DNA from: Callorhinchus milii | Taxonomy: Eukaryota | NCBI RefSeq assembly: GCF_018977255.1 | Contig: NW_024704742.1 | Coordinates: 135,782,001-135,846,000 of the forward strand | Direction: 5' to 3' | Length of the DNA stretch: 64,000 nucleotides | Shown: positions 2,876 to 26,080 of the stretch, in pieces | Layout: each line of letters starts with the position of its first letter | How positions within the stretch are numbered: the first letter of the stretch is position 1 | Notes under the pieces: model-generated | Seen by the model: the letters and a program-made list of their open reading frames with translations, nothing else | What the model was told of the DNA's origin: nothing | The model's database searches: none | Made by a program: the position numbers and the translations under genes

Positions 2876-3038
2876 ATGAAATTGGCCTATAACCACGCTC
2901 AGATGGGGTGCCTCGACGGCAGGCCGTCCAACCTCAGGGAGTTGTCGTCACACGAGAGGAGGATCCTGGAGATGTTCGGGCCTGAGCCTGTGATGGGTGT
3001 GGGGGAGTGGAGCGTCGAGCTGGAGGAGGACCAATCTG
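2876..3038 (+). CDS. Myb/SANT-like paralog A, exon 2 (MKLAYNHAQMGCLDGRPSNLRELSSHERRILEMFGPEPVMGVGEWSVELEEDQS); exon 1 not in window
   Basis: TCTCGCAG acceptor, TG|GTACGG donor, same 163-bp length and phases as paralog B exon 2. Confidence 0.87.
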
Positions 3039-3085
3039 GTACGGTCAACGCAGATACTCACTTGTACACTGGATAACAGCGTAAC

Positions 3086-3445
3086 CCCACGCCCGCACAC
3101 CAGATACACAGGACCCGTACACCCGCACACCAGATACACAGCGCCCCCACACCCGCACACCAGATACACAGCGCCCCCACACCCGCACACCAGATACACA
3201 GCGCCCCCACACCCGCACACCAGATACACAGCGCCCCCACACCCGCACACCAGATACACAGCGCCCCCACACCCGCACACCAGATACACAGCGCCCCCAC
3301 GCCCGCACACCAGATACACAGCGCCCCCACACCCGCACACCAGATACACAGCGCCCCCACGCCCGCACACCAGATACACAGCGCCCCCACACCAGGTAAC
3401 ATAGCGCCCCCACACCCGATAACAGAGCGCCCGCACACCAGGTAA
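3086..3445 (+). repeat. 30-bp minisatellite (CCCGCACACCAGATACACAGCGCCCCCACA), ~10 near-perfect copies plus degenerate ends
   Basis: Head-to-tail repeats without spacers, in paralog A intron 2. Confidence 0.97.
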
Positions 3446-3568
3446 AAGCGTGGCCCCCGCACTCGTGCCCCGTTAACCACGCGCCACATAACCGCGTGTC
3501 CCCTTACCCGCTGCTTGGCCTGGCACAGACACACAGCCGTTTGTGTGGCCAACAGTGCAGGTGTGGAG

Positions 3569-3748
3569 GTGTGCACGGGGGGGGGGTTCTCGAGCTCTGT
3601 ACAGTGGTGAGCAGAGCAGGTGTGCACAGGGTGGGGGGGGGCTCGAGCTCTGTACAGTGGTGAGCAGGGCAGGTGTGCACAGGGTGGGGGGGGGTCTCGA
3701 GCTCTGTACAGTGGTGAGCAGAGCAGGTGTGCACAGGAGGGGGGGGGG
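3569..3748 (+). repeat. ~52-bp tandem repeat x3 (GTGTGCACAGG(G)nCTCGAGCTCTGTACAGTGGTGAGCAGAGCAG)
   Basis: Direct inspection. Confidence 0.9.
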
Positions 3749-3919
3749 TAAAGTGCTGCAACTCACAACGTGCGACGACCGTTGACGTGAGGCCGGTGCG
3801 TGCTGGCGGTTGACGTCGCGCGAGGCCGGTGCGTGCTGACGCTTGACGGCGCGTCCTCGGCGGTTGACGTTGCCAGGGTAACCGTGTCCACTCTCCCCCC
3901 CCCCCCTACCCCCCGACAG

Positions 3920-5049
3920 AGCTGCAGGCCGCGGCGGCGCAGCAGGGCGAGGAGGCCCGGGGCGGCGGCGGCGAGGAGGAGCCGCAGGAGGGGAGCGAGC
4001 CCTTCCCCACGGCTGGCCCGAGGCCGGCCTCGCACCCGGGCTCCATGTACTCGCGGGCCCGCACGGCGGGCGGCGGGGTGACGGGGGCCTGGGTGCGGGC
4101 CGGCGGCGGCGGCGGCGGGGTGTCGGTGTGGCACTCGGGCGGCGAGGAGGACGAGGAGGAGATGGGGGGAGTTGGCGGCCTGGTCGGCGTCGTGGGGGAG
4201 GAGGAAGGCGAGGACCTGGAGGGCGGCGAGCCGCACCCGCTGCCGGGGCAGCCGGTCAGGAGGCTGGGGAGCAGCCGGGCCCAGGCCAGGGCCTTGCCGG
4301 TGAGGCTGTCCGCGGGCCGGGCGGGGGCGGGGGTGGGAGCCGGGGCCGGGGCCGAGGAGCGGGGAGTGGGGCCCGTGTTCAGGCGCCAAATGCTCCGTCA
4401 GGGCGACGACACGGTGCAGCTGCTGATCGACATGAACGCGGCGGTGCGGAGCGGCCTGGCCCCGGTCCAGCGCTGCGCCGAGCAGCTGCCCGAGGCCCTG
4501 GGGGAGCTGCGGCAGGACCTGGTGGAGGAGATGAGCCTCCTGAGGGACGAGATGCGCTGCGGCTGCTCGGACACCGAGTCCCAGGCCGCTCACCCTCACC
4601 CTCCGGTCCCACCCCAGCCCACCCCAGCCCCGGGCCTCGACACCCAGGCTCTGCTCCAGGCCGTGGACAAGGCCATCGCCTCGGCCGCCGGTACGCTAAG
4701 CGCCGGGATCTCCCAGGCCCTGTCCGGCGGCTTCGCGGCGCTGGGCCGGCAGGTGGAGAGCTCCATGGCGGCGGGGTTCCGGCTGGTGGCCGAGGCCGCA
4801 GCCACCATCACCCTCCCTCCTCCTCCTCCTCCTCCCGCCGCCGCCGCCGCCGCCTGGCGTGGGGTGGAAGCCGGGGAGGAGGTGACTCAGAGCCGGGAAG
4901 CCTCCCCGCCGAGCCCCGGCCTCTCCCCGGTTACCTGGCACCAGCCCTCGGGAAGCTCGCGGAGAGGCAAGAGGAAAGAGCCGCCCACCCGCAGGGCTTC
5001 CAACAACCGCACAGCCTCGGGCAAGAGGCAGCACAGAGGTGATACATAG
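3920..5049 (+). CDS. Myb/SANT-like paralog A, exon 3 (ELQAAAAQQGEEARG...NAAVRSGLAPVQRCAEQLPEALGELRQDLVEEM...NRTASGKRQHRGDT)
   Basis: C-rich tract + GACAG acceptor, phase 1, in frame with ORF 4045..5049; start and end peptides align with paralog B exon 3. Confidence 0.85.
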
Positions 5050-5227
5050 GGACCCGCTCAGGGGGTGTCAGCCAACACCCACACGGACAGGACAGGACGG
5101 TCTGGATGGCCTCCCCCCCCTGTGCTGTAAAAGCTTCTCTCTCTCTCGGACTCTCAGGAAAGGGGAAAAAAAAGGGTGAGGGAGAGAAAGGCAGTGGATT
5201 GTAAATATTGTATCTGTAAATATTGTG

Positions 5228-5233
5228 AATAAA
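5228..5233 (+). terminator. PolyA signal AATAAA of paralog A
   Basis: AATAAA ~180 nt after the stop, preceded by two TGTAAATA and followed by T-rich sequence. Confidence 0.8.
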
Positions 5234-5438
5234 ACCAAACACTTGTTCTCACGCCGACTCCCTCCTCCTCTGGTGCTCGCACTCCCACCTCTCTTGTTTG
5301 TGGGGCACCTGCTGTGCGCCACTGTGTGTTTTAGGTACAAGGAACTACACGACGAGGTTTCCTTACCGTACAAGAAATGGCAATTGAACGCGGCTTAGTA
5401 TGTTTGAACAATTGGTTCGGCCATGCTGCAAGCCCGGG

Positions 5439-5444
5439 TTTAAT
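5439..5444 (-). terminator. Candidate POLI polyadenylation signal (ATTAAA)
   Basis: The only AATAAA/ATTAAA hexamer I found on the minus strand between the POLI stop and the convergent paralog A 3' end. Confidence 0.4.
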
Positions 5445-5922
5445 ATACACCGTATATATAAATGAAGATCAGCGGAAAGCTGCATTTAAACGCTTTCCTG
5501 AATTCCGCAGGAAATTCGATAGTAAACACAGAAGCAAAGACCAAGGGGTGTAATTCAGTTCGCTGATTAGCAGCAGAAAGACATTCCCCACCTACCGCTT
5601 AAAAGCCGCACAATGCCAACTGACTAACTTGGCCGAGAGTTGCGGGGACAAAATTGCTGCGTTTCCCAAAGTCATCTTGTTTAAGTGACGGTGTTAAGCT
5701 GTGTCGAACTCCCACGACTTCTGAGCAATGGTGGCTTTCGAACTAACTCCCGTTGCGCTGCCGTCTTGGGCTCCCAAGTCAACCGAGACCGGTTTTCATG
5801 CTCGAATAAGCCATCACTAATCCAGCATCATCTTCCAGGTTCTAGACTCTGCTGTATATGAAGAAGTCAATCCTGTTCGCGTGACAGCTCTGAGCACTGG
5901 ACTCCTGACAGCAGTTCACACT

Positions 5923-6758
5923 TCAGCTTGGTTTAAAGTACTTAAGGATCCCATGGTCCTGGCTGGACCTCCGGCCTCGCTTGACTCCTCGGCCAGATTC
6001 CCCTTTCCCACTTCTCGCTATGGGCCCTGCAGCCTGCTGCCTCCAGCCTGTCAGCAACTCCTTCTGGAGCCCGGGGGGCAGCTGTGAGAAGATCCCCGGG
6101 TCCACACCAGACGGAACCTCAACTGAGCACAGTAGGGGATCCCGGTCCTCTGAACCAGTGTGTGTCCTGGAAGGAGTGGGCTGACTTTTCTTCACCTGTG
6201 CCACTTCCCCCTGAGCTGCACTCTGCACCGAGCAGGACCTGCTCTCAGCTGGACCTGTGGGATGTGTGGAGACCTCACCCTGCTCAGGTTGTGTGAAGAG
6301 ATCACGGCAAATACCAAGCTTGCTCCTCTGGGCCCGCTCCCCACCAGCGTCAGCGAGGATTTCCATTTGGAGCTCAGTTGGAAGTTCCTTAAATACATCT
6401 GGATCAATCCCAGGCGGGAGGTCACGGTGTGATAACACCAGCTTGTTACTGCGTCCCAATGTTCCCGGAGCAAATGCCAGACGGTTCCCATTGGTGTCTC
6501 CTAAATCAGTGCTATCTCCTAAACTGGTGCCTTTTCGATTGGACACCAGCCCTCCTCTTCCTGCTGGCCCGCCCGGATTTGTGTTTTGTGTTAAGTAAAA
6601 GCTGATAGAGCCTGGGGCGGAGGCCGAGGCTACAGGCTGGGTGAGGTTGGAGAAGCAGACGCTGATTAGAGTTAGGTGGAAGCCGAGCTCAGCGTTCACC
6701 AACCTCCAGAACAGCTTCATCAGGATCTCGACCAGTGCGGACTTGGCATCGTGGCTAC
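5923..6758 (-). CDS. POLI: DNA polymerase iota terminal exon: end of little finger (ILMKLF...FHLTLISVCFSNL), UBM1 (LPPGIDPDVFKELPTELQMEIL), UBM2 (VPSGVDPGIFSQLPPGLQKELL), stop
   Basis: Acceptor CCGATAG at 6759-6760; two ubiquitin-binding motifs; the nine exons sum to 2019 nt = 672 aa + stop. Confidence 0.95.
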
Positions 6759-6764
6759 CTATCG

Positions 6765-8200
6765 GGATAAGAGAGGAGAGAGAGGGGGTGGGTCAGAGCT
6801 TGAGAGTAAACAACAGCAGAGGCTGGCGCTGTGGAAAATAAGCACGCTCGAAAAGAAATGTATTCAGGCGGGACTTGAAAAAGAAGTGGGCAAGGTGGGA
6901 GGGATTGAGGGAGAGTGTTACAGAGTTTTGGGGTGTAGTGGCTGGAAGCATGACCGGAGGGTGCGAGGGATGAGCAAGGGGCCGGTTCCAGTTGAGCGGA
7001 GACGCCGGGTGGTGGATTGGAGAGTGAGAGGTCGGAGAGGTAGTGAGGTGCCAGAGAGTGAAGGGATTTGAACACGAGAGTGAGGATCTTGAAGTCGATC
7101 CATTTGGTGATGGGAAGTCAGTGGAGTCTGGCCAGAACTGGCGAGATATTTAAGGAGTTTGGTCCGGGTCAGTATGTGGACGGCAGGGTTCTGAATGAGC
7201 TGGATCTTTTGAATAGTCGAGCTGGGGAGACCATTGAAGAGTGGGTTTGAGTATTCTAAACGGGAGGTGACAAACACATGGATTTCAGTTGCATTTGGGA
7301 TAAGTAAAATCGGAAGCGGGCAATGTGGCGGAGGTGGAAGAAGGCGTTCCTGATCAGGGACTGGATGTGGGGGAGGAAGGACAGCTGGGGTCAAACTAGA
7401 CACCCAGATTGCGCACTGGTTCGGTGAGTGTGAGGGACAGCACAGGGATGTTCAGATCCGCAGGAGTGAAGATGTTTACGGGACCCAAGGAGTATTCCGT
7501 CTTGTCCACACTCAGCTGCAGTATCAGGAGGATGTCTCAACGTGGAGTCCTGTAGCTCAGTGATTAGAGCACTCGCTTTGCAAGCGAGAGACCCGAGTTC
7601 AATTCCAGGCAGAGGGCGAAACCTTGGGCAAGTTTCCTTACTCCACACAGAGCCTAATAATAATCCCTCCAAAACCCAAAACAATAATAAATTGGTCATT
7701 TTCAATCTACGACTGTTTGTGGGACACTGCTGTGCGCAATTGGCTGCCGTGTTCGCCCACAAATATACAAGTCAATTGACTTTACAGTGTGTTCTGTGAA
7801 GCGCTTTGGGACGTCCTCCCGACGTGAAAAGCGCTATATCAAATGCAAGGATTATTATTATTATAACATGCTTCACATAACTGACTGTGTGGGGTGCTGG
7901 GGGGAGAGGTTGCAAAAGTGTATGGATCTTGAGCTGGAGAGGGATGGGCAGAGGGAATGGAGTTCGACAGAGCAGGGGAATAGCTTGTCCACGGATGGTT
8001 TAAGCAGGGGTCATGCCAGCCAGACAGCGTTTGCTGAGCAGAGAGAGCAACTGGGACAGTTTGGGTATAGGAAGTTGCAAGGGTAGAAATAGCAATGGCT
8101 GTGGAGGGCTTATGAAGGATGTTGAGTTTGATCTTCTGGAAGTTGAGAGCCAGTGGAGCTGAGATGGTCTCATGGGGCTTAGTGAGGGAGAGGACACGGA
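6765..8200 (-). mobile_element. L2 fragments filling POLI intron 8, interrupted by a SINE at 7543-7864
   Basis: FVTSRLEYSN, LIQNPAVHIL, FKSLHSLAPHYLSDL. Confidence 0.8.
7543..7864 (+). mobile_element. tRNA-headed SINE, young short subfamily
   Basis: GGAGTCCTGTAGCTCAGTG A box, GTTCAATTCC B box, L2-like 3' stem-loop, (ATT)n tail. Confidence 0.92.
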
Positions 8201-8221
8201 GCAGAGATCTGGAAGCATTAC

Positions 8222-8355
8222 CTTCGCTCAGTTTTCGTCTCAGCTGCAAGGGAACCGGACACTGGCGACTCTCCCGGTAGTTAAACCCTCTGTTGGTAGG
8301 GATACGGCGAATGGTCAGCCGTACTGTCCGTGCAGTCCGTCCAGCTCTCTGAAGC
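8222..8355 (-). CDS. POLI: DNA polymerase iota exon 8 (LQRAGRTARTVRLTIRRIPTNRGFNYRESRQCPVPLQLRRKLSE)
   Basis: Not in the ORF track; translated by hand. TVRLTIRR and RESRQCP little-finger motifs; phases 2 and 1 fit the neighbouring exons. Confidence 0.93.
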
Positions 8356-9065
8356 CTGTGGGGGTGAGATCAAAACATTAGCAGTGACTTGTGTTGACTC
8401 TTCAGTGAACGCAAGCGCCAGGCCCATATTTTTATAAAACACTAAAGAATGGCCGCCTTGTAGTCAAGACTGGATAGGCGGTTCCCTCATAATCACCTGC
8501 AGGAGTTCCCATTAGGAATTTCCAGGTTGAGAACCTGAGGATTGTCTCGCTGAAGCCCACCGCGGATCTGCCTCGATGAGGCCCACCCACCATGGAGCTG
8601 CCTCGCCGAGGCCCATCACAGAGCTGCCATACTGAGGCCCACGGTGGAGCTCACCGAGCTCATCTTAAAACCTTGGTTAGCAAGATTTGGTTAGCACTGG
8701 GAGAAATTAGAAAAAAAAAGCACTGGCAGAATTCCCGCTTTTGATTCTCATCCAGTAACCACGACCCCCACCTCTGGGAAATGCATGTGCAGATAGATAT
8801 CAGCAAGGATAAGATAAGGGCTGGGCTGTAATTACACTTTTCCTTAGCCTTCCAAAACTCATTATCTAAAATCAATCAAAAAGAATGGCCTCCTGGCTAA
8901 GATACTGAAGGAGTCTGGGACCCATAGGACTATTCTCAGCCTGAGGCCATGTCTTTAACAACAATTTAATTTTTGTATAAGGTCCTTTATGCGGGGCAGG
9001 CCAGCAGAGGTGGTGGGGGGGGGTTTGAAACTGAACACAAACATGAAGGGAAAGAGCTCACAAAC

Positions 9066-9157
9066 CTGTTGAGAAGACTCGTCAGCAGCACTTCAATTTT
9101 ACTTCTAACTTCGGCCTCTGAGGTGCATTTCCTGAAGGAATCTTCATCACTGAAGGA
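9066..9157 (-). CDS. POLI: DNA polymerase iota exon 7 (SFSDEDSFRKCTSEAEVRSKIEVLLTSLLNR)
   Basis: Matches the start of the Pol iota little finger (SFSEEDSF); canonical splice sites, 92 bp. Confidence 0.95.
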
Positions 9158-9748
9158 CTGAAGAGGAGATACCAAATAAGATAACCAAACGGTTTAGAAC
9201 AAGCCATCTTCCCCTGAGAGTCTGACTACGTTCAGCTGAAAGAGTTAAGCGGAGGTGAGAGAGCTTCACTAGGAAGAAGGAAACATTTGGATTTCTTCCA
9301 TTTCCTCCCATCTTCTGGGGCTCCACGTTTGTGGATACACTAATACCTGGTTCAAGTGGCCATTATTCAGTTGAACAGGTTTCATGCTAACCTCTGACTT
9401 TTTTGTGTCACATTAAGAAACTCATCACCGTCTTTAATAGTATCCAAACCAGCCTGAGATAACAATAAACACCCTCACAGGATCCCACTCAAATCTCTGC
9501 AAGGTTGTTTGGGATGTTTAACTATGTAAAAGATGCTATATAACTACAGGTTGTTGGTTGACTGGTGTAAAACAAGAGGAGAAATTCCACTTGTGTTGAG
9601 ACAGACTATTTACTGAGCATTTTACACAGGCAGAATTTGGCAATATTTTCCATATGGAACTGGTTTAAAAATTAAGGCTGCTTGTAATTGCCAAACAAAA
9701 TCGAGTAAATCTAGACTCAGGGGAAGCATAGCATTGAAGAAGCTTTAC

Positions 9749-9927
9749 CTGAGGTGGTCCCTTGGGAGTCACAGGAGATTTATCCTCTCCAAGGCTCAGT
9801 CTCTGGATGCGTTGAGCACCAGATGATCCCAGTTCCTTCTCCAGCACATGCAGGGGGATTGTCTGCAGACTAGACAACGTTCTGACTCCCAGAGCCTCCA
9901 GCCGCTTGGCAGTTTTATACCCAATTC
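9749..9927 (-). CDS. POLI: DNA polymerase iota exon 6 (thumb HhH GIGYKTAKRLEALG...GEDKSPVTPKGPPQ)
   Basis: GIGYKT helix-hairpin-helix; TTTCTAG acceptor, CAG|GTAAAG donor. Confidence 0.96.
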
Positions 9928-10234
9928 CTAGAAAATCCCAGACAGAAAGATTGATGGGATCAAAATCGACAGAAACAAATGAATGAGTTCAGACACAGAG
10001 TTGGTGGATGGGGGAACTTAGAATGGGAAGGTCCCGTGAGAAGCAACATGGATGATCTGTGAACCAATGTGTGAGGAGTGGTAGACACTACACCTTACAC
10101 AAAGCCTGTGAAGCGCTTTCAGATGTCTTTCCGACGTGAAAAGCACTATTGCAAATGCAAGAATGCCAGAAGTAGCAGCAGTAAATAAAAGCACTGAAGG
10201 TAAAGGATAAAAGATTAAAGCAGGGAGCTCTTAC

Positions 10235-10471
10235 CAATTAATTGCTGGGGTTGCGTAAGGCTCCTCATGAGCTGCAAGGTGCTGTCTGGAAGCAGTGTGG
10301 TTTGCTGGTTGGGTTTGAAGGTGCCGGAGACCATTTTAGCCAGCAGCTTATTGCAGGCGATTCCAGCACAGCCCGTCAGCCCCAGACGATTGTGCAACGC
10401 AGCCCGCATCTCAGCCGCAACCTGGGAGCCCAGCGCCAACCGCACCTGCTTCCCGTCGCTGGTGTCTAAAG
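10235..10471 (-). CDS. POLI: DNA polymerase iota exon 5 (RLALGSQVAAEMR...GLTGCAGIACNKLLAKMVSGTFKPNQQT)
   Basis: NKLLAK and KPNQQT motifs; canonical splice sites, 237 bp. Confidence 0.97.
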
Positions 10472-11030
10472 CTGCACAGATCAACAATGTTAACGTGCAA
10501 GAGTCGGCTCAGTCAGCCACAGTCTCGCCCCTGTGTCCAAGTCCCAACATCAGGGGGAGGCGCCCAAGCTGTCTGGATAACATTGGGAAAAAGCCACACT
10601 ATTGGGGAAGGCTATCCGCAAAAGTGTGAGACACTAAACCTAGTCTTGATATCAACACGGCAAGGAGGAGGATGGAGAAGGCTAATGAATAGGAAAGGTC
10701 AGAGAAGCAAGGATCCAAGATTACAGCAGAGAAAGTCGAGGGAGAGGGGAGAGAAAGGCAATTTGGAAAGAGAGGGGAGTGTTTTGGAATGAGAAGTCAA
10801 TTTTGAATGAAAGGCAATGTAGTTTAGCAAGAGAGGTGGTTCAGAAACAGAGAGAGACTATTTGGAAAAAGGATGTGTTTTGGAAAGAGATGATTTGGAG
10901 AGAGAGAGAGGATTTAGAGAGACAATTTGGGAAGAGCAGTTGGAGACGAGAGGATGTCTACTTTCCTCGGCATTACGGTGACCCATCTTGGAATTTTCGC
11001 CTGCCAATGTTCTGTAAGTGGAGCGCCTAC

Positions 11031-11186
11031 CCTGGTTGTTGTAGATGTGACCAGATACATAGATCTCTGTGGGGTCTCTGCCACCTCCTATCTGTCCCAG
11101 TCTCTTCTCCACCAATTTAGTTGCATCAATAAAGTTCTCATCAAAGCCAAGTCTCTCCACGAGCGGACTGAACTCCTCCAGTAATT
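11031..11186 (-). CDS. POLI: DNA polymerase iota exon 4 (LLEEFSPLVERLGFDENFID...SGHIYNNQ; catalytic DE)
   Basis: ERLGFDENF motif characteristic of Pol iota; canonical splice sites. Confidence 0.97.
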
Positions 11187-11390
11187 CTGAAATCAAAAGC
11201 CATGATTCTGAAATCATGAGTCAGAGGTAATTCATTCGCATGGGCAGCACCAGCCCCTACCCCTCCCCTGGTTATTGTTCAACAGGAGTCATGTGGAAGG
11301 AATCCCTGCCCCCAATGATTTGTTCCTAAAAAGGATCCAAGAAAGAAAGATTCCAAGCTTGTGGTGAAGTTTGACAGCAGCTTGAGGTAC

Positions 11391-11555
11391 CTGTGACCTT
11401 GTATGAGATTTCTCTGTAAGGGGTCAAATCCTCCCCGTTGACCATAACCAGCTCAGGACATTTCTCTTTGGCCTCGTTGAACAACATGAGTTTACTAACC
11501 CCACGCTTTCTGGCCTCATAATTGCAAGTGACCATCAAATACTTCTGGTGAACAC
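11391..11555 (-). CDS. POLI: DNA polymerase iota exon 3 (VHQKYLMVTCNYEARKRGV...NGEDLTPYREISYKVT)
   Basis: Y-family TCNYEAR and NGEDLT motifs; canonical AG/GT, 165 bp, phase 1-1. Confidence 0.97.
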
Positions 11556-11654
11556 CTGTAGAGAAGCAATATACTACATAAATCAGTCAATCAGTGATGC
11601 GTCAATCAACCCATCAACCCACCTGTCAATCAATACACCACCCACAATTATTGG

Positions 11655-13590
11655 GCAACAACAACGAGATAACATTTGTATAGCGCCTTTCACGTCAGGA
11701 GGTTGTCCCAAGGCGCTGGACAGTGTACAGCATTTCAGCCCCAAGCTGGGGTCGTGGGGAGGGGAGAAGGGAGGGGAAGGGGGGGTGGCCGGTGGCATGG
11801 TCGAAGAGGAGAATCTTGAGGCAGGACTTGAAGGAGGCTAAGAAGGGAGCGAAGCAGAGTGATTGGGGGATGAAGTTACACAGGTTTGGGGCAGAGTGGC
11901 TGAAGGCTCTCCCACCAATGGTGGACTGGGTGGGCCGGGGGACGTGGAGCAGCCAGAGCCGGCTGAGTGGAGAGAGCAGGCGGGTTGATAGGAAGTTACG
12001 AAGTCGCAGAGGTAGGGTGGGGCGAGGCCATGGAGGGCTTCGTAAATGAGGACCAGGATCTTGAACTGGATCCTCTGAAGGATAGGGAGCCAATGGAGAC
12101 AGACGAGAATGGGGGAGATGGGGTCAGGGAGGAGAAAGGATACGGGCTGCAGAGTTCTGGATTATCTGAAGCCTGTGAAGGGGGGAGTTGGGAAGGCCGA
12201 ACAGGCGTTTCACAGTCGAGCCTGGAGGTGATGAAGGCATGAACAAGAGTTTCAGTAGCCTGAGTGGTGAGATAGTGGCGGACTCGGGCGATGTTACGGA
12301 GGTGAGGGAAGGCAGAGTGGGTCATGGCTTGGATGTGGGGATGAAAAGACAGTTGAGGGTCGAACAAGACACCTAAGTTCCTGACTGGCTGGTGAGTTGT
12401 AGTGTGCAACCATGGAGGTTGATGCTGCCAGAGCCTGAGGTGCTGAGGCGTTGGCGCGAGGCAATCAGGAGGGCCTCAGTCTTGTTCACATTCAACTGTA
12501 GGAAATTTGCCATCATCCAGGACTTGATGTCCGACAGGCAGTCTGTCAGGACAGCAGTGGTCCTGGAGGTGAGGGTGGAGGCAGAAAGATAGAGTTGGGT
12601 GTCATCCGCATACATGTGGAAGTTGACCCCATGTCTGCGGATGATGTCACCAAGGGGGAGCATGTAGATATCAAAGAGGAGAGGGCCAAGGCAGAGCTCT
12701 GGGGGACGCCAGACGTGACAGTGTGAGGGCTAGAGGAGAAACCGTTAGAGGCAACAAAGTGGAGACAGTGAGAGAGATAGGAATCGAACCAGGCAAGGGC
12801 AAGTCTGTAAAGATTAAGTAAAGAGGAGAGGCGGTGTATGAGGATGGAGCGGTCGACAGTGTCGAAGGCGGCAGAGAGATCGAGGAGGACAAGGAAGCAG
12901 AGAGAGCCCTGATCACAGATGTTCAGAACGTCATTTGTGACTTTGACCAGAGCTGTTTCTGTGCTGTGTGCAGCGCGGAAGCTGGATTGGAGGGATTTAA
13001 AGAGGGAATGGCGAGAAAGAAAGGAGTGGAGCTGAGACCCGACGATTCGTTCCAGGACCTTGGAGAGGAATGGGAGTTTAGAGATGGGGAGGTAGCTGGA
13101 GAGAAGGGATGGATCCAGGGAAGGTTTTTTCAAGATGAAGGTGATGACAGCTGTTTTTAGTGGAGGTGGAAACTGAACCAGTGGACAAGGAGAGGTTGAA
13201 GACGTCGGACAAGAGAGGGGTCTGAAGGTGGAGCTGGGAGATGAGAGTGGGGATGGGATCGAGGGAGCAGGTGTTGGGCTTGAGTTTGCAGACAGTTGTG
13301 GTGAGGGAGGAGAAAGAAATAGGGTATAGGAGTATAGGGAGGGATGGGTGGGTGTGGATCATGAGGGAGAGGTGATGTGGGGGTGGCTGTGGACGGACCA
13401 GAAGTGGCTGAACGTATCCCCTCGATTTTGGATTGGAGGAAGTCCAGCATCTCCTCACAGTTGGAGTTTGAGGAGAAGATGGGCGAGGCGTGGGAAGGTG
13501 GACTGAACAGACAGTTTTTGGTGGAAAAGAGAAGCCGGGGGTTGTCCTTTGCCTCCAAGATAACCTTGGAGTAGAAGGAGGATTTGGAGA
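11655..13590 (-). mobile_element. L2 LINE, 5'-truncated and frameshifted, in POLI intron 2
   Basis: [32 protein letters not shown] in successive frames; L2 3' tail. Confidence 0.93.
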
Positions 13591-13848
13591 GCACTGGACT
13601 GTACACACATTCACTAGCACTGTACTGTACACCCACACTCACTGGGCACTCACTCACATTTGATCCAAGACCTTATGTGGGACACTACTGTGCCCAATTG
13701 GCTTCCGTGTTTCACCCACTAAATATACAATAAAATCACTTTATAGTATATTCTATGAAGCGCTTTGAGACATCTTGAAGATGTGATAAGGTGCTATATC
13801 AAATGCAAGAATTATTATTATTTGTTAAAGGAGGTACAGTTTGATTAC

Positions 13849-13980
13849 CTATAGGTTTGTTCCTTAATTTAGGGTTTCGGATCATTTCTACCTGTGCGTA
13901 GAAGCAATCCAGGTCGATGTGCACTATGACCCTGCCATCTGCGGCAGTGGTCTCTGGGGCAGCAAACTGGAGGCTTGAAC
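13849..13980 (-). CDS. POLI: DNA polymerase iota exon 2 (RVIVHIDLDCFYAQVEMIRNPKLRNKPIG; first catalytic Asp and steric-gate Tyr)
   Basis: Y-family motif I DLDCFYAQVE; acceptor TTTCCTCAG and donor G|GTAATC. Confidence 0.97.
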
Positions 13981-14499
13981 CTGAGGAAACACACAAGATT
14001 AACTGGAGGAGTAAAGTATTCAGTCAAATGGCGCATATTCCTCCTTCGTACACACTCGCGTAAAATAAGCAACAGAGTCTCGGCAACCAAATTGGCCACC
14101 TGTGGACTGTTACTGTGCGCAAATTGGCAGCTGCGTTTGCCTAAAATAGGCACAGTTAGTACACTTTACAGTAAATCGTGTGAAGCGCTTTGCAGTCAAT
14201 GTACCAATTGCAACGAGAACGGTTATTTATCAGCAACCGTGGCAGGGACAGTGCTTCCAAATGTTTCTGTTCTTAACGTTTGCAGAAACTTAAGCAAAAA
14301 AATAAATAAAAAGGAAATTCAAAACAGATTCTTTCCGCCTCACTGACTCTCTTAACGCAACTGAACCTGCACTGAACTCTCAACCTTCGCTCAAAACGCA
14401 CAGTCAATTCACTTTACAGCATACTCCGCGATGCGCTTCCAGACGCCTCAGCGACAGTGTCAAACGCAAAGGTTATCAGAGATAACGTTTGAACTCTCT

Positions 14500-15540
14500 T
14501 AACCTGCCTGGACGCCCGAGAGGAGTCAGGGGTTTGGGGTCAAAGCATTCAGCCCTACAGAGCCATTCCCTTTCGCCTTCCTCCTCCGAATCCATCGTCG
14601 TCTCTTCGGAGTCCGCGTGGGACCAGAAGCGGCTGTGCCGAGCGCTGCCCTCCAGGGAGGAAGGAGCCCAAGACATCTTCCCCCACTTGTCCCCCAAGTC
14701 GAACACCACCACTTGTGAGGCGCAGAGGCCCCCAATGGACAACCAAAACACAAGGCCACGCCCCAGAACAAACCATCTCCAATTATGCTGCGGATATCTG
14801 AGCCCCTTCCAATGGAGAAATGGCAGAATTTATAATGGGTTTAGCCCAAAGTCAACCAAATACAGACCCCCCCCCCTCCCCCACCAAAGCAGCACCTGAC
14901 GTCCTGTCGGTTTGTCCCAGTGGGCATTATTCGAAAGTTTCTCCCCCCCCCCCCCCCAAAGTTCTGCCTCCAAACACCCATAAAAATATAATATTTTTTT
15001 ATTTTCAAATTTAAAGTTGTTAAGGTTAAAAAAAAAACACACACGACTGCAATAGTTTTCAGGTATTTTCGGACCTCAGCGATTCAGCCCCTGTCACACA
15101 CTCTCCACTCCAACCACATGTGTGTGGGGGGGAAAAAAAACAACTCCGGTCAAACTACAGTCGGCCCTCACTGGGCCCTCCCTCGTGCGGAACGATATGC
15201 TTCTCGGCACCGCGGAGACAAGGCCTCTCTCTCGGCCCCTGATTTCGGAGGGTGAAGCCTTCGTTTCAAAACGCAACCGCCCGCCGTTCATTAACCGAAC
15301 CGGTGGCACGAGCCAGGGATGGGCAGTGGGGCGGCGCGGGCGGGTGACCGGTGCTGCGGGTTACGGGGCTGGAAACGCGGTGTGGGTGTCGCACTCTTTG
15401 GCCAGGCGGAGGAGGAGCCGGGCGGGAGGGAGGGAGTGAGCGGGCGGTTATAAGGCGCTGTTGCGCCGACAGCGACTCAGTCGGAGCGGCGGCAGCTCCG
15501 GAGGGCTGTGGTGCACAGAGCGGTCAGAGGTTCCCATCAT
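14500..15540. promoter_or_regulatory. CpG-rich POLI promoter region, possibly bidirectional
   Basis: CpG-rich blocks at 14500-14790 and 15140-15530; CCAAT motifs; GC boxes and plus-strand TATAAG at 15449-15454. Confidence 0.55.
14508..14595 (-). CDS. POLI: DNA polymerase iota, coding exon 1 (MDSEEEGEREWLCRAECFDPKPLTPLGRP-G)
   Basis: ATG at 14595 in strong Kozak context (ACGATGG) and an acidic N-terminus as in vertebrate Pol iota. Exon 2 needs a phase-1 donor, best met by CAG|GCAGGT at 14507. An in-frame upstream ATG lies at 14676. Confidence 0.7.
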
Positions 15541-16375: not shown

Positions 16376-16381
16376 TTTATT
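16376..16381 (-). terminator. PolyA signal AATAAA of paralog B
   Basis: AATAAA ~470 nt after the stop, in a context conserved with paralog A (TGTAAAT.TTGTGAATAAAAC). Confidence 0.75.
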
Positions 16382-16853
16382 CACAAGATTTACAGATATT
16401 TACACGCTTCCCCCCCCCCCCCTCCCCCCTCCGCCACCAACCACCAACCCCCACCATCAAAAAACTGGCCCGTCGGGTCTCGGCGGCGTCACGAGAAAAG
16501 CTTACAGCGCAGAGGGAGGCCATCCGGCCCCGTCTACTCCGCGTTGGCGCTGGCTCGCTCACCCCGAACGCAAGACTACCTGCCCCATGGACCTCCCCCC
16601 CCCCCCCGCCCCCCACAAGAAGCTACCTTCCCAACCCCCAATGGACCTACCAGTCCCCCCCCACTCTCCTCTCATGGACCTCCCGCCACACCCCAAATGG
16701 ACCAAACATCTCCCCCTTCAAGGGATCCATCTCAGGTCCTCCCAATGGGATCCATAACAACAACCCCCGCGCCAACTCCCCCCACAGTGGACCTGCAATG
16801 GTCCTCACAGCCTCTGCCCCCCATGTTCTCTTCTTCCCCCCCTCCCAATAACC

Positions 16854-17971
16854 CTATGTGTCTCTTTTCCGCGCCCTCTTGGCCGAGGCTGTGCGGTTAC
16901 CCGGCGCGCCGCCGCCGCCGCCGCCTTCTTTCCTCTTGCCTCTGTGAGGCGGCGGCGGCGCTGCTGCTGCTGCTCCGGGAGCGGGAGGGGAGGAGGAGGC
17001 GGGAGAGGAGCCGGAGGAGGAGGAGGAGGAGGGGGGTGGCGGCCGCCGGGGGGCCTGACCCGGGCCCGGCTGGTGCTGCTCCTCCAGCGGCAGGTCCCAC
17101 CACAGGGCCTGGGTGTCCCAGGCCGCGGGGGACGAGGACTGACTGGCGGACGGCGTGTCGGCGGCCGCGGCGAAGCTCTCGTCCGTCTGCTGGGCCACCG
17201 ACACCTGCTGCCGGCGGCGCGGGGCCGAGGCCGAACTCGAGCCCGAGGCTTCTCGGCGCCGCAGGGCCTCGGCCAGCAGGAGGAACCCGGCCGCCATGGA
17301 GCGCTCGAGCTGCTGGCACAGCGCGGCCAGGCCTCCCGCCACCGCCCGCGACAGGGAGCCGGTCGCCATGGACACCGAGCGCTCCAGGGCCTCCACCAGA
17401 GCCTCGGGGTCGGGGTGGGGCGAGGGCCGAGGCGGGTGCGCGGGGCCCGGGCAGCGCATCTCGTCCCTCAGGAGGCCCATCTCCTCCACCAGGTCCTGCC
17501 GCAGCTCCCCCAGGGCCTCGGGCAGCTGCTCGGCGCAGCGCTGGACCGGGGCCAGGCCGCTCCGCACCGCCGCGTTCACGCGGTCCAGCAGCAGCCGCAC
17601 GGGGTCGTCCTCGGCCGGCGAGGCCGAAATCGAGGTCGGGGTCGGAGGCCGACGCGGCACTTGACGCCGCCTGAAGCCCGCGGGGCCCACGCACTCGGGT
17701 CTGAGCCTCGCCTGCGGGAGGGCCTTCCGGGCCTCCAGCTCCTCCTCGTCGGACACGGCCTCGGTCTTTATTCGCTCTCCCTCCTCCCCCTCGGCCCCGT
17801 CCTCCTCCAGGCTCCGGCCCGCGGGCCAGCCGCGGCCCGCCACCCGCCCTGGCCGGGCCCGCACATGCCCCGGCCCCGGCCTCGGGTAGCCCTCGCTGCC
17901 CTCTGCCGGCGGCTCCTCGTCTGCTCCGCGGGTCTCCTCGCCCTGCTGGGCCCCCGGGGCTTGGGGGTCTG
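16854..17971 (-). CDS. Myb/SANT-like paralog B, exon 3: acidic/disordered linker, coiled-coil/amphipathic helices, basic C-terminal NLS-like tail
   Basis: CAGCAG (NAGNAG) acceptor, phase 1; open to TAG at 16854; three exons total 1509 nt = 502 aa + stop; homologous to 3920-5049. Confidence 0.85.
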
Positions 17972-17973
17972 CT

Positions 17974-19620: not shown

Positions 19621-19737
19621 ACAGAGAGACACACAGACACTCACAAACAGAGAGAGAGAGAGAGACATACAGACACACACAAATGCACATAGAGACAGAC
19701 ACACACAATCAAACACACAAACACACACAGACAAGTA

Positions 19738-20129: not shown

Positions 20130-21596
20130 TTCTGCGGAAACAGTGCAGCCGCACTTTTCTGTTGGCCCAGCGGATAACCACATATCTCCCTTACCCGCTT
20201 CCCAGATAACTGCTTGTCCGCTTTACACACATGCTGGACAACCTCTTGCCCTCCTTATCTGCAGACCGGATAATCCCGATAACCGCATGTTCCCCTTACC
20301 CACTCGATTTATAGTGACCAGGTCACGACTTTAACCTCAGAAACGCGAGGTCTATGTGATCCAGGTCAATATAGCAGATTCTGCTCCCTGTTATAACGCA
20401 GGAACCATCATCCTGTGGAGGGGGGTGGGGGACGAGGGGAGGTAAGTGGCATCTCCTTCTACCTGAAGTAGGTCCAAGGTGAAATGCCCGGCAACGGAAT
20501 ATCGGAATCGAGCCAGCCCTCTGCGGTGGTCAGGGTGGTCTGGCTCCTGCTGATGACAGCAAAGCCCAGCCTGGCTCATCATCGGGGCCCGGAAGGGCAG
20601 ACTAGTCACTACATGCAGGATATCCTCCCTCTCAGCTCCTGCAAGCCAAAGCCCTAACAGGTAGGGTGGTCCTAGCTGGGCAAGCAGTCGGGGAAAGCTT
20701 GCCAGACAGCGATGTCAATGGCAAGCTATGCGGGTTTAGCTGGTTAGATTCCAGCTGTATTCCAAACCACATTCCCAGGTGCCTAAGCCAACCTGTGCCT
20801 AATGCTTTCCGGAATTAGGTAAGCAGGATGTGTCCCTCCGGGGAGAGAGAGCGCATTCCGTTCCAACAATCTTATCTCTGGGATTTCCATGTGTAGGTGG
20901 GACGTGGAATTCTCAGTTTTTCAAATCCCACCTGAAAATCTTCCTCTTCGTCCGTGCTTATCGCCACCTCCCCCTCCTCCAACCTCCACCCCCCCCCCCC
21001 CCCGGCTCAGAGTCAGGCTCCACCACTGTTAGACACTCTTGAGACGCTACTCTGCTTGGAGTGCAAATTGTTGTTCCGAGGATGGTACGCAAGTCCAACT
21101 TGCAGGAGATAATGTTAGCAGCGACCTAGAAGGTGTCAAACTTTAGAGTGGGAAGCCAGCTTGTTAGTTGGAACTCGGGTGTATCAAGTCTATGGTGAGT
21201 AGAATGAGGAGGTTATATGGGTCCATAGTAGACCCGCACTCTTGAAAGGCGCTATAATGGGGTTTTCCCTATAACTTGCAATAAAGAGAGAGATACTGTT
21301 AAAGGGGGGGACGGGAGGTAACGCATACACACACGAGAGGCATAGAGAGACACGCACAAGCACACAAAGACCCATTATCTGCACTGTTTTCATATCCACA
21401 ATGGGGCTGCTTTCAATTAGTGCAGATATCAGGCTCCTTAACAAGTCGGTTCCCAGCAATTCCATAGATTGCGCTGGGGAAGAATGGAGTGAGGTTTTCC
21501 CGTTAGGAGAACGCGTGCACAACTCACCAAGGAATCCCGTCAACAATGACCCCCTCCTAACAGCGGGGAGGGGAGTGGGGGAGGGTCATTACCCAC

Positions 21597-21759
21597 CTGT
21601 TTGGTCCTCCTCCAAGCCCACGTTCCACTCCCCCACTTCCATTGCCGGCTCCGGCCCGAACATCTCCAGCATCCGCTCCTCGTGTGGTGACAGCTCCCTG
21701 AGTCCGGGGGGCCTGCCATCGAGGCACGCTAACTGAGCTTTGTTATACGCCACTTTAAG
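21597..21759 (-). CDS. Myb/SANT-like paralog B, exon 2 (LKVAYNKAQLACLDGRPPGLRELSPHEERMLEMFGPEPAMEVGEWNVGLEEDQT)
   Basis: 163 bp, TTCTGCAG acceptor, CAG|GTGGGT donor, phase 0-1; 39/54 aa identical to the exon at 2876-3038. Confidence 0.88.
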
Positions 21760-21839
21760 CTGCAGAACAGAACATGGCAGCACTATTATAATATTAATAT
21801 AATAATCCTTATATTTGCCCACATACACAGTCAACATCA

Positions 21840-22285
21840 ACAGCAACAACAAGATTCCATTTATAAAGCGCCTTTCACGTTGGGAGGACGTCCCAAGGTG
21901 CTGTATAGTTAGGTCAGGACCCAAGCAGGGGGAAAATGGTCAGGGGGAGGGGAGGGAAGGGAGGGAGCGAGGAGGGGGTAGAGAGTCGAGAGGGGAGCTG
22001 AAGGCACGGTCAAAGAGAAAGGTCTTGAGACCGGTCTTGAAGGAGGAAAGGGAGGAAGCGGCGAAGGCACTGGGGATAGAGTTCCAGAGCCTCGGGCCTG
22101 AGAGGCTGAAGGCCCGGCCACCGATGGTAGGGCGGTTGGGGCGGGGGACGTGGAGCAGACCGGAGCCAGAGGAACGGAGGGTACGGGCAGGTAGGTAGGG
22201 GGATAGTAGGTCGGAGAGGTAGGAGGGAGCAAGGCCGTGAATGGCCTTGTAGGTGAGGATGAGGATCTTGAAGTCAAATCCATTT
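21840..22285 (-). mobile_element. Young L2 3' fragment
   Basis: Near-identical to 38445-38880 and 58205-58640. Confidence 0.9.
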
Positions 22286-22676
22286 TACAATAATTTCTGT
22301 GAAGCTCTTTTAGACGTCTGAACGACGTGACGAGGCAATAAAAAACTCAAGGATTAATACTATTTTGACATTGCGTCTTGTAAGTCTTCGAGATATCTCA
22401 AACGTGCTTCACCGAATGTGATGCCTTATTTATAGCATTATATCCCCACAAACAGCCATGAAGAGAATGACTGATTTTATCGGGGGGATTATCAGCCAAG
22501 GAAACCAGGAGAAACTCCTCTTTTCTGATTGGGATCTTAAACTCCACATGAAGAGGCCCAGAAGACCTCAGTTTAATATTTCATCCATAGGACGGACCCT
22601 CGAATATTACAGTTCTCCTGTATTGGAATGGGAGTGGGCAGCACTCTCCCCAATGAGTCAGAAGGTTGTGGGTTCA

Positions 22677-22677
<1 letters not shown>

Positions 22678-22709
<32 letters not shown>

Positions 22710-23016
22710 CCTTGCATTTGATATAGCGCTTTTCACGTCGGGAGGACGTCCCAAAGCGCTTCACAGAACACACTGTAAAGTGAATTGACTGTATATTTGT
22801 GGGCGAACGCGGCAGCCAATTGCGCACAGCAATGTCCCACAAACAGTTGTAGATTGAAAATGACCAATTTAATTATTGTTTTTTTTTTGGAGGGATTATT
22901 ATTAGGCTCTGTGTGGAGTAAGGAAACTTGCCCAAGGTTTCGCCCTCTGCCTGGAATTGAACTCAGGTCTCTCACTTGCAAAGCGAGTGCTCTAACCACT
23001 GAGCTACAGGACTCCA
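22678..23016 (-). mobile_element. tRNA-headed SINE, young short subfamily, inserted inside a DeuSINE
   Basis: Near-identical to 7543-7864; long (TAA)n tail; host SINE continues on both sides. Confidence 0.92.
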
Positions 23017-23279
23017 AAATCCCCCACATGTTGGGACCTTGAGCTCGTTCTAGCCTGATGTTCCAATACAGTGTTGGGGAAGAACAGCATTGATGGAGGT
23101 GCCTTCCTATGGATGAGATGTTAAACTGAGGTCCTGGCTGCCTGTTCAAGTGGATATAAAAAAGGGAGTTTCTTCTGCTGTCCCAGCCAGCAATTGCCCA
23201 AATAAAATTGGTCCCTCACTTCATGCTGTTTATGGGATGTTGCTGTGCGCAAACTGGCTGCTGCTTTGCTAACCCTAAC

Positions 23280-24038
23280 CCTCCATGGTTGCACACTTCA
23301 ACTCACTGCCAGTGAGGAACCTCGGTGTCTTGTTCGACCCTCAACTGTCTTCTTCCCCACATCCAAGCCATGACCCGCTCTGCCTTCCCTCACCTCCGTA
23401 ACATCGCCCGACTCTGCCACTACCTCACCCTCAGGCCACTGAAACTCTTGTTCATGCCTTCACCTCCAGGCTCGACTATGCAAACGCTCTGCTTGTCGGC
23501 CTTCCCAACTCCTCCCTCCACAGGCTGCAGATAATCCAGAACTCTGCAGCCCGTGTCCTCTCCCGCACCAAACTCTGTGACCCCATCTCCCCCACTCTCG
23601 CCCGACTCCACTGGCTCACTATCCTTCAGAGGATCCAGTTCAAGATCCTGGTCCTCACATGGTCTCCATGGTCTCGCCCCACCCTACCTCTGTGACCTCC
23701 TAACCCCCTACCAACCCGCCCGCTCCCTCCGCTCTGCCGGCTCCGGCCTACTCCACATGCCCCAACCCACCATTGGCGGGAGAGCTTTCAGCCACTCTGC
23801 CCCCAACCTCTGGAACTCCATTCCCCAATCACTCCGCCTCGCCCCCTCCTTAGCCTCCTTCAAGTCCTGCCTCAAAACCCTCCTCTTCGACCATGCCATC
23901 GGCCACCCCCCTTCACCTCCCTTCCCTTCTCCCCCTCCCTGACCCCAGCTCGGGTCTGAAATGCTGTACACTCTCCAGCGCCTTAGGATGTCCTCCCGAC
24001 GTGAAAGGAGCTATACAAATGTTGTATCTTGTTGTTGC
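23280..24038 (+). mobile_element. L2 3' fragment
   Basis: [26 protein letters not shown], 3' stem-loop tail. Confidence 0.9.
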
Positions 24039-24992
24039 TTTGACCTGGAAAAGTCACTCCACTTTACAGATATCTTTGTGAAGCGCTTTAAGGCGAGGTG
24101 GTAAATTATGATAAACAATCCTTACGTTTGATACAGCGCCTTTCACGTCGGGTGGATACCTCAAAGCGTTTCACAAGATACACTGCAAAGTGGCGTGACT
24201 GTATTTTGTAGTTGAACCCAATAAGGCAACGATTAATTACAATAAAAGGTAAAAGGCAAATCATCGTATCCTGTGCCCTTTACCATTCCAAAAACCTCCC
24301 TTCCCAATCTCTCCCCAAGACAGCGAATGAGAGACGAACTATTTTGCCAGCAATTCCACCCACAGTGGGGAAATGTAATGTTAAATGTTTAACTGTGGCC
24401 ACTTTTAAATAATCCTATCTTCGAGACGTCTCAAAGCGCTTCACAGAATATACGTAAAGTGAATTCACTGTATATGTGGACGAAATGCGGCAGCCAATTG
24501 TGCACAGCAGTGTCCCACAAACAATCGTAGATTGAATGACCAATTTTTTTTATGATTATTACCCTTGGAAAAGTGATCCGCCAATCAACTAATAACACGT
24601 ATTCCTAGTTACTGCGAGGTAAACAGGTGTGTGGAGTCAAGAAACTTGCCTCACGTTTTGCTCTGCCCGGGAATCGAACCCCAGTCCTCTCGCTTGTGAG
24701 CCGAATGCTCTAACTACTAAGCTTCAGGAATCCACTGACCCTTTGCCCAACCCTTCAAACATAGTTTTCTTTTAGGAAGTAACATTATGAGATACAGTAC
24801 ATAGGTAGTTTGGGACATATGTGCATGCCGAGAAGGTGGAAAGTGAACTAGATGGACCTCGGTCTTTTTTTGTCTGGCATTTCTTACGTTCTTATGCGTA
24901 CCCCAAGTTGGACTTTGCAGTAGTGTAGTTCCTCTATTACATTGTGTTCAGTTGGTGTCACAATTCTGTAGAGTCCCCAAACCAGACGAGGT

Positions 24993-25340
24993 GTCAGCCT
25001 GGCTCAGTAGGTAGCACTCTCGCCTCTGAGTCAAAAGGTTGTGAGTTCAAGTCCCACGTCGGGACCTTTGAGCTCGCAGTCTAGGCTGACCCTTTAATAC
25101 AGTGTTGGGGGAGCACTGTACTGTCAGAGGTGCTCTCTCTTGGATGGGATATTAAACCGAGGTCCAATCTGCCTATTCGGATAGATCTTTAAGCACTACT
25201 TCAAAAGAGAAGGGAGTTTCTCGCTCCCAGAATCCTGGAGAACAATCACTCAAATAAAATAGCTCATTCACTTCTCTTTGTTTCACCACAGCTGATTGCA
25301 GGGCTTTGCTGTGCACAAATTGGCGGTCAAGTTTCCCCAG
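24993..25340 (+). mobile_element. DeuSINE-type SINE (SacSINE1/AmnSINE1-like core); other copies at ~2230-2450, 33830-34100, 35105-35440, 44600-45010, 51590-51830, 53400-53640, 56320-56590, 61885-62285, 63500-63990
   Basis: tRNA-like head GCCTGGCTCAGTAGGTAGCACTCTCGCCTCTGAGTCA and Deu-like core GTCAGAGGTGC...GATGAGACGTTAAACCGAGGTCC...AAAGATCCCATG, recognised from memory of the family. Confidence 0.75.
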
Positions 25341-25852
25341 AACAACAACAGCAAAATAACATTTGTATAGCGCCTTTCACTTCGGGAGGACGTCCCAAGG
25401 CACTGAACGTAGGCATTACATTTTACAAGGAACCTTTGAGACGTCTCCCAAAATGCAGTGGAACCAGGGTGAGGGGGACGAGGGGAGGGCAGAGCCCAGA
25501 GTTGGGGTGATGATGCTCGTGTGGAACTCGGGGTGGGGTGGAGGTAAGGGTAAGAGCCTCGGAGTGCGGAGGTTGTAGGCGGTGGGGGCGTCGGTGAGGA
25601 TGCGAGTGTGGAGCCAGGGGTGGGGGAGGAATGATGATGGGAGTGTGGAGCTCAGAGTGGGTGGGGGGTAGGAGGACATGGATGATGGGAACATAATGGG
25701 TGGGGAGCACAGAGCCCGAGGTTGACGATGGGAGCTCGGAGGGTGGGGGAAGAGTGTTGGGGAGGGGTGACAAGCGTGAAACGCGCAGCCCAGGGGAAGG
25801 GGAGAAGATGAGAGTGGAGCCCAGAGAGGGGTGAAAGGGGGGCAATACTCAC

Positions 25853-26080
25853 CCTGGCGCTCTTCTTGAGGTCATGGATCTTCTTCCTGCACTCCTCCCA
25901 GGTGCGGGTGGTCCTCTCCTCGGCGTTGACCAGCCGGACCACCTCCCTCCAGCCCTGCAGCCTGGCCTGAACCTGCGACTGCATGACCCCGGTGGAGAAG
26001 AGGATGTGTCGGCGGGCCATGACAGCGTAAGTCAGCGCCGTCAGCCCGTTCTCCGTGAACCTCCCCTTGCGCTGCACCAT
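25853..26080 (-). CDS. Myb/SANT-like gene paralog B, exon 1: DNA-binding domain (MVQRKGRFTENGLTALTYAVMARRHILF...QGWREVVRLVNAEERTTRTWEECRKKIHDLKKSAR)
   Basis: Pattern RK..F..........V......LF ... W..V...VN......RT..EC.KK..DL is the Myb_DNA-bind_5-type signature of NAIF1/MSANTD/Harbinger Myb proteins. Strong donor AGG|GTGAGT, phase 0. ATG 26080 has good Kozak context; alternative in-frame ATG at 26119. Confidence 0.88.

Follow-up and report, generated by a model that had tools for sequence, protein, structure and literature searches.

Gene content of the locus

The stretch analysed here (the window) comprises 64,000 nucleotides from the chimaera Callorhinchus milii (contig NW_024704742.1, positions 135,782,001 to 135,846,000 of the forward strand) and contains two Myb/SANT-like genes, named A and B, which lie on opposite strands, point toward each other and enclose the whole of POLI (Table 1). 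The spliced models describe A and B as intact three-exon genes with open frames for proteins of 519 and 515 amino acids (aa), a middle exon of the same length, intron phases 0 and 1 in both, alignable last exons and an AATAAA signal at each 3' end. A preliminary description of the window had proposed two such spliced genes, with intact frames and in inverted orientation around POLI, and is borne out in these respects. The first exon of A, for which it had pointed leftwards, was found beyond the edge of the window.

Table 1. Coordinates of the genes, exons and shared tracts discussed in the text (window numbering unless a locus or genome position is given; CDS, coding sequence; UTR, untranslated region).
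Feature	Position	Strand	Remarks
A exon 1 (Myb domain)	G000:C1:135778294-135778560 = window -3706 to -3440	+	genome search; 3.4 kb left of window
A exon 2	2876..3038	+	163 bp, AG..GT, phase 0 to 1
A exon 3 and 3' UTR	3920..5233	+	CDS 3920-5049, AATAAA 5228-5233
B exon 1 CDS	26119-25853 (25853..26119)	-	PF13873 Myb/SANT-like; second ATG 26080
B exon 2	21597..21759	-	163 bp; joined to exon 1 in RNA-like X1 contig
B exon 3 and 3' UTR	16376..17971	-	CDS 17971-16854, AATAAA 16381-16376
POLI coding span	5923..14595	-	9 coding exons read; IMS and UBM domains
101-bp identical tract, A copy	4433..4533	+	helical block 1; = B 17578-17478
101-bp identical tract, B copy	17478..17578	-	= A 4433-4533
398-bp identical non-coding tract, B copy	26354..26751	-	same tract upstream of A
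Shared upstream block	28168..30660 (A: window -5413 to -7900)	-	two minisatellite arrays and ~210 unique bases
Gene D	L018:3180-7240, G000:C2:91.17 Mb	+	open three-exon frame ~414 aa; short start of Myb domain
Gene E	L073:8271-8759 and 7378-8109, G000:C4:30.90 Mb	-	more distant intact Myb-like gene; first two exons fused
Harbinger fossil	L088:2750-6224, G000:C1:35.92 Mb		decayed, two genes; transposase by tblastn E 1e-9

The Pfam domain Myb_DNA-bind_5 (PF13873) was identified in B exon 1 with an E value of 2.4e-9, above the cut-off, as expected from the earlier assignment of this exon to the Myb/SANT-like class, and in a distant paralog, C, with an E value of 3.5e-12; the other 4 of the 5 exons scanned had no match. 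The top Atlas hits (0.90-0.93) were likewise PF13873 clusters. Between A and B, exon 1 differs at 26 of 267 bases (87% protein identity), and exons 2 and 3 of A match B in BLASTP with an E value of 4e-80. The second ATG of B lines up with the start of C. The CpG island reported at the start region of B is present (GC 0.61, CpG observed/expected 0.81). As a separate observation, the leader of B extends over at least 665 bases (window 26119-26784) and contains five upstream ATGs that are common to A, a possible means of translational control.

The last exon of A encodes an acidic/Gly linker, two amphipathic helical blocks and a basic tail with the motif RGKRK..KR, and terminates in NRTASGKRQHRGDT before the stop codon; B terminates in NRTASAKRARKRDT, the common ending being NRTAS.KR....DT. 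A helical periodicity of 3.5-3.8 was found in all eight blocks (two each in A, B, C and the further paralog D), a value reached by at most 3 of 500 shuffles. The C-terminal helical region had no homologue in the protein searches, no usable Atlas hit and no PDB sequence match.

Transcription and splicing

The RNA status of the sequencing runs is a software guess, for which the splice junctions are the sole backing, as none of the matching runs is registered as RNA; runs X1 to X3 belong to one study and X7 to another. The junction between exons 1 and 2 of B is exact, with one 1489-nt X1 contig covering 26010-25853 and then 21759-21597 without mismatch, and its remaining 1168 letters fit exon 3 in length. 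The X2 and X3 contigs likewise end at the exon 2 borders. For A, a 321-nt X1 contig covers exon 2 up to the donor and carries 157 further letters, the length expected of A exon 1 from the point at which A and B branch; judged from this boundary and length, A is likely spliced from exon 1 to exon 2. Of the RNA-seq junctions that the preliminary description had named as a check, that between exons 1 and 2 of B was recovered directly, and that of A is indicated by boundary and length. No junction was seen among the X7 matches listed. For C, a protein record speaks for transcription and splicing. In addition, within intron 1 of A (L027:6165-6789) an RNA-like X1 contig skips a GT..AG interval in sequence derived from a long interspersed nuclear element, as a cryptic spliced transcript.

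The wider family in the genome

Paralog C lies at 95.28 Mb on C1, 40 Mb away, and encodes 552 aa at a GC content of 49%. On one side of C is the 3' end of a GKAP1-like gene, on the other a ubiquilin gene, and D is flanked by a carbonic anhydrase gene and a DUF4665 gene; for the GKAP1-like, ubiquilin, C18orf54-like and DCC-like genes in the neighbourhoods of the family we use the names that we take to apply, and Pfam domains were taken from the scan. A, B and C have all three exons in common, and D shares them more distantly. The 163-bp exon 2 is found in D as well and corresponds to an exon of 151 bp in C; it is thus ancestral and not specific to A and B. Gene E is distinct from a Myb gene of this class at DTD2-NUBPL, as the Tyr_Deacylase matches are on C3 and C9. 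In the tree, A and B are sisters (support 97/98) and the deeper branches are weak. A and B retain different ancestral blocks of C, with A exon 3 matching C at 52% over 152 aa. C exon 1 has 14 matches in the genome, of which five lie in genes with open frames and the remaining nine are broken or truncated; three relics retain traces of later exons, in order. The family is therefore not just local: the duplication that the preliminary description proposed holds for the A/B sisters and their inverted arms, and C, D, E and about nine relics are dispersed. DNA transposition would explain intron-keeping copies without common neighbours better than would retroposition or a segmental duplication.

Two further observations concern family members. 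C lies in a head-to-head CpG-island region with the ubiquilin gene (L015:7700-8500), possibly a borrowed bidirectional promoter, and another PF13873 frame is located on a small contig (L037/L076, G000:C326:68032-68271) beside retroelement-like frames and low-complexity arrays.

Protein searches returned no relative outside Callorhinchus milii, with shark-proteome coverage unchecked, so that these blanks are weak. With C exon 3 as query, 7601 candidates yielded nothing but C itself; none of 41 candidates among longer proteins matched B exon 1; and phmmer with a 441-aa record lacking the Myb exon, over 1.84 billion representatives, returned the record itself and a 37-residue beetle match, which we judged to be low-complexity noise. 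A protein record labelled Callorhinchus milii is identical to C exon 3. The A and B proteins were returned by none of these searches. Cluster representatives may hide exons, since the representative of C itself is without exon 1. In the open-access literature, no paper on the A/B locus was found.

Mosaic identity between A and B

The preliminary description had given the divergence of exon 2 as about 21%. This figure is correct (35 of 163 bases, 21.5%) and untypical of the pair, as the identity between A and B ranges from no detectable homology in the introns, where dispersed repeats alone are in common, to 100%. Synonymous divergence (dS) amounts to 0.60 in exon 2, 0.52 in helical block 2, 0.19 in exon 1 and 0.04 in helical block 1 (chi-square p 2.4e-4 for heterogeneity among blocks). 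A and B are identical over runs of 398 bases in the upstream region, 83 within exon 1 and 101 within exon 3, and the Sawyer permutation test gave p 0.0035 on 94 fourfold sites and 0 of 20000 on third positions. Such clustered identity at silent and non-coding sites is a feature of paralogs under interlocus gene conversion. Since RNA-like contigs cover the 398-bp tract, it is likely the 5' UTR/promoter. A 391-bp tract was full-length and 100% identical at 2 of its 15 genomic matches, A and B alone, and is thus not a mobile element. Farther out, the shared upstream block (best local alignment with 257 matches and 21 mismatches over 297 columns; about 93% in its unique part) extends the similarity to 4 kb upstream, giving arms of about 13 kb.

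The GC content at third codon positions (GC3) is 0.74-0.93 in A and B versus 0.58-0.68 in the neighbouring genes (POLI 0.58, DCC-like 0.63) and 0.47 in C. Raised GC3 is expected from GC-biased conversion, the inverted BMP8A/BMP8B pair being an example (PMC2720389). We thus regard the A/B mosaic as the likely outcome of gene conversion between the inverted arms, a process that the preliminary description had missed, and the high GC3 as likely due to a GC bias in it. The converted tracts may be under selection or may simply lie where homology survives.

The assembled A leader (L027, about 1250-1290) is without a 96-base and a 34-base piece of the B leader (26142-26279); in X1, X2 and X8, contigs carry the 34-base piece and split into branches at the 96-base one, so the 34-base deletion is either a variant or an assembly slip. 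The idea that the first codons of B are converted to the A type in other animals was dropped, because bubble-popping of contigs explains the pattern equally well.

Constraint and origin

The ratio of nonsynonymous to synonymous divergence (dN/dS) over conserved blocks was below 1 in all comparisons: 0.14 for A-C, 0.23 for B-C, 0.25 for C-D and 0.47 for A-B, with 0.30 in A-B exon 2. Fisher tests of dN<dS, in the same order, gave p values of 4e-25, 4e-17 and 9e-12, and of 0.002 in the unconverted A-B blocks. An intact frame under purifying selection, as in a domesticated gene, was thus found. Among perfect inverted repeats of at least 11 bases in the 4-kb flanks, TWA duplications with (R)GG ends were present in 0 of 42 for A, 0 of 30 for B, 0 of 3 for C and 0 of 15 for D (imperfect terminal inverted repeats (TIRs) lie outside this test), and none of 11 DDE_Tnp_4 matches falls within 1.5 Mb of A to D. 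The many near-identical copies of an active Harbinger element were not observed, with 4 of 5 candidates matching exon 2 and 3 of 3 matching helical block 1, counts that are lower bounds. Neither is the family single-copy, as MSANTD1-4 are. With the open frames, the dN/dS values, the splicing in RNA-like contigs and the lack of a nearby transposase or Harbinger-type TIR in the intervals given, the earlier view of domesticated genes rather than a live transposon is upheld. In its favour, too, Harbinger elements are reported absent from the C. milii genome (PMC9179366).

Two transposase queries over 49 loci and the window gave a match at one locus alone, a decayed Harbinger fossil (Table 1). Its Myb-like gene has an exon layout similar to that of the A/B family and eight TGTAAAT repeats at its 3' end; the same motif occurs twice each in A, B and C and in 3 of 3520 control bins. 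The collinear match to the fossil scored -7.5 versus -8.5 for the best of 220 control windows, 1 bit above all 220. A Harbinger link is likely, given the domain, PMC9392472 and this marginal collinear match. Independently of A and B, two intact Harbinger-type transposase frames were noted at L047:958-2214 (C19) and L048:1336-2448 (C21), of which one is likely HARBI1 and the other perhaps a further domesticated transposase.

Several points speak against a reading of A and B as functional host genes of Harbinger descent. The fossil window was chosen post hoc and its pairwise matches have E values above 0.3; the TGTAAAT motif is absent from 1790 bases of D, and 3' motifs rich in TGTA may have arisen convergently as polyadenylation elements. 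Over the 49 loci and the window, a transposase was not seen linked to any relic. Also, dN/dS among dispersed copies can reflect selection during a transposon's life. Both splice junctions come from one study, with the RNA status guessed. Finally, NAIF1 and MSANTD2-4 are given omega (dN/dS) values of 0.02-0.06, with 0.02 for NAIF1, in PMC9392472, and the A-B value of 0.47 lies far above these, which indicates weaker constraint.

Preferred scenario and alternatives

With these points considered, we hold it to be quite probable that A and B are intact host genes of likely Harbinger Myb-like descent, that they go back to a likely inverted duplication that long ago took place around POLI, that they likely exchange sequence by conversion and that they encode predicted dimeric nuclear DNA-binding regulators. 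A Harbinger lineage would have scattered intron-bearing Myb-like copies over the genome, most of which decayed into the relics that are observed; C, D, E and the ancestor of A and B would have retained open frames. About 13 kb around one copy would then have been copied, inverted, to the far side of POLI, giving the shared arms. As dS reaches 0.6 in unconverted blocks (about 0.5-0.6) and the introns have dispersed repeats alone in common, the A and B copies are old. The arms, 11-35 kb apart, would recombine ectopically, copying short tracts across and so producing the observed mosaic; in this way conversion would keep the two copies alike in the 5' leader, in helical block 1 and over much of the Myb exon, with GC3 likely pushed to about 0.9. 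The inverted orientation would permit exchange without deletion of POLI, and crossing over would turn the A-POLI-B block round. In the protein, the N-terminal trihelix would bind DNA and the two amphipathic helical blocks would serve dimerisation, and the basic tail would give nuclear entry. For these three activities, analogy with NAIF1, as outlined in PMC9392472, and the MSANTD proteins leaves us with a moderate expectation that they apply.

The name under which C is filed raises the alternative that the family is the chimaera NAIF1, or another named MSANTD-type orthologue, with local duplicates: XP_007905016.2, a 552-aa member of the cluster of C, is called "nuclear apoptosis-inducing factor 1" (the NCBI label), and NAIF1 is reported in cartilaginous fishes (PMC9392472). 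A second NAIF1 was not found in the genome by two degenerate motif patterns, which gave 2 matches (neither an open Myb frame) and 0, and the search for a NAIF1 locus by its NT-C2 neighbour gave 0. Against this, residues 1-125 of C, compared with proteins of 303-966 aa (human NAIF1 has about 327), matched 0 of 116 candidates at E<=0.01, no NAIF1 sequence being aligned directly. C lies between the GKAP1-like 3' end and the ubiquilin gene, neither of which belongs to what we take to be the human NAIF1 neighbourhood, and the genes that we presume to be MSANTD4-like and FSBP-like are found at other loci and form a separate group in the tree, modestly supported (87/89). As NAIF1 is very conserved (omega 0.02; PMC9392472), it should have scored among the 116. 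The label is thus probably a best-hit name and C probably not the NAIF1 orthologue, and we consider orthology to a named gene improbable. Another alternative is that a non-autonomous Harbinger element, active until recently, moved over a short distance and left A and B as its copies, in which case the identical tracts would date from recent transposition. The dispersed intron-bearing relatives in unrelated neighbourhoods would agree with it, and inverted local copies are typical of DNA-transposon hopping; yet A to D gave neither Harbinger-type ends among the perfect inverted repeats of their 4-kb flanks nor a transposase match within 1.5 Mb, and the copies are old, with identity that is patchy and not uniform, which makes such a recent origin very unlikely.

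The 398 bases without a difference could also suggest an assembly artefact, with one locus pasted into both places. Local errors or variants do exist, as the 34 bases missing from the A leader attest, and short-word contigs cannot phase an identical tract. The DNA runs X8 and X9 each collapse the shared tract into one 453-bp contig, and in X8 the shared contigs branch to A-specific and B-specific contigs at the predicted points, which argues against assembly error; their depth is 13.6 and 18.3 versus 4-11 in the unique pieces, although depth is not copy number. In X1, the shared depth of 35.4 is close to the sum of 12.7 (B) and 20.7 (A), and tracts of intermediate identity (93%, 90%) exist too, so that an artefact seems to us extremely improbable. 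It is likewise hard to credit that A and B are transcribed but decaying, with conversion a neutral by-product of nearby inverted repeats and no regulatory protein function left. Such decay would account for the A-B dN/dS, for low-complexity linkers that align poorly and for the lack of any A or B protein record among those returned, but neither frame is interrupted over 1.5 kb, in the face of numerous in-frame indels and of the dS of the unconverted blocks, where dN remains below dS, while among 14 relatives 9 are broken. The duplicated host genes that we favour could well undergo neutral conversion; a loss of function would contradict them.

An extension of the same scenario, which we regard as unlikely as it stands, is that of a chimaera-restricted, multi-copy Harbinger-derived transcription factor family in which selection confines ongoing conversion to the leader, the DNA-recognition exon and the dimer helix. 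In it, A and B would be co-expressed and able to heterodimerise, linkers and tails would diverge, and the 35-kb A-POLI-B block would flip as an inversion polymorphism.

Neighbouring genes

The gene order is cupin, C18orf54-like, A, POLI, B, DCC-like. The bracketing of POLI by A and B is probably incidental, and nothing observed connects the two proteins with the function of POLI. About 20-25 kb left of the window, a multi-exon cupin gene (Pfam Cupin_1; L014:5197-9771, plus strand) was observed, at a position where human presumably has DYNAP; a germin/oxalate-decarboxylase-like fold is unusual in vertebrates. In window 27000-64000 and L067-L069, no MBD2 exon or CpG island was found between B and the DCC-like gene and no STARD6 between A and the C18orf54-like gene, and none of five MBD-domain matches lies on C1; the region has no N gap. 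Human presumably has MBD2 and STARD6 at the corresponding positions, and, if this order is right, A and B sit at the two positions of human STARD6 and MBD2.

Relation to known systems

NAIF1 and MSANTD1-4, as described in PMC9392472, resemble A and B in having one Myb/SANT trihelix (PF13873) at the N-terminus, a small number of exons, purifying selection and expression, and neither TIR nor transposase. Each of them occurs in one copy, at a position conserved across jawed vertebrates and with an omega of about 0.02-0.06 where seen, whereas A, B and C are multi-copy, 515-552 aa long and less constrained, with a C-terminal helical region for which the searches gave no homologue and two copies that probably convert. 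The Myb-like frame of autonomous Harbinger elements (PMC9179366) has the same domain, dispersed intron-bearing copies and the marginal collinear likeness through the fossil; unlike these, A and B lack a transposase partner, neither a TIR nor a TWA duplication was detected, intact copies are few and the introns are full of other repeats. BMP8A/BMP8B (PMC2720389), also inverted, is homogenised beside divergent segments with raised GC3, but in A and B the genes are probably transposon-derived, the arms lie 11-35 kb apart around one gene (about 235 kb in BMP8A/B) and it is the 5' leader that forms the longest tract. MYPOP, TSNARE1, ZSCAN20 and PRDM11, putatively Harbinger-derived (PMC9392472), carry a Myb-like domain of the same origin; the search with residues 1-125 of C gave no close match among proteins of 303-966 aa.

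The class itself is thus known; the multi-copy status with relics and the concerted evolution of an inverted pair are new. The protein sets that were searched seem to contain neither A nor B, and the probably wrong NAIF1 label on C could mislead presence/absence tables. As a compact example from a cartilaginous fish, the locus also illustrates probable mosaic gene conversion with a gain of GC. The vertebrate Harbinger Myb-derived genes described in PMC9392472 are single-copy and about 430-500 million years old; at the A/B locus, the same co-option would have yielded a small multi-copy family, intact genes and decayed relics together, in a genome reported to be without Harbinger.

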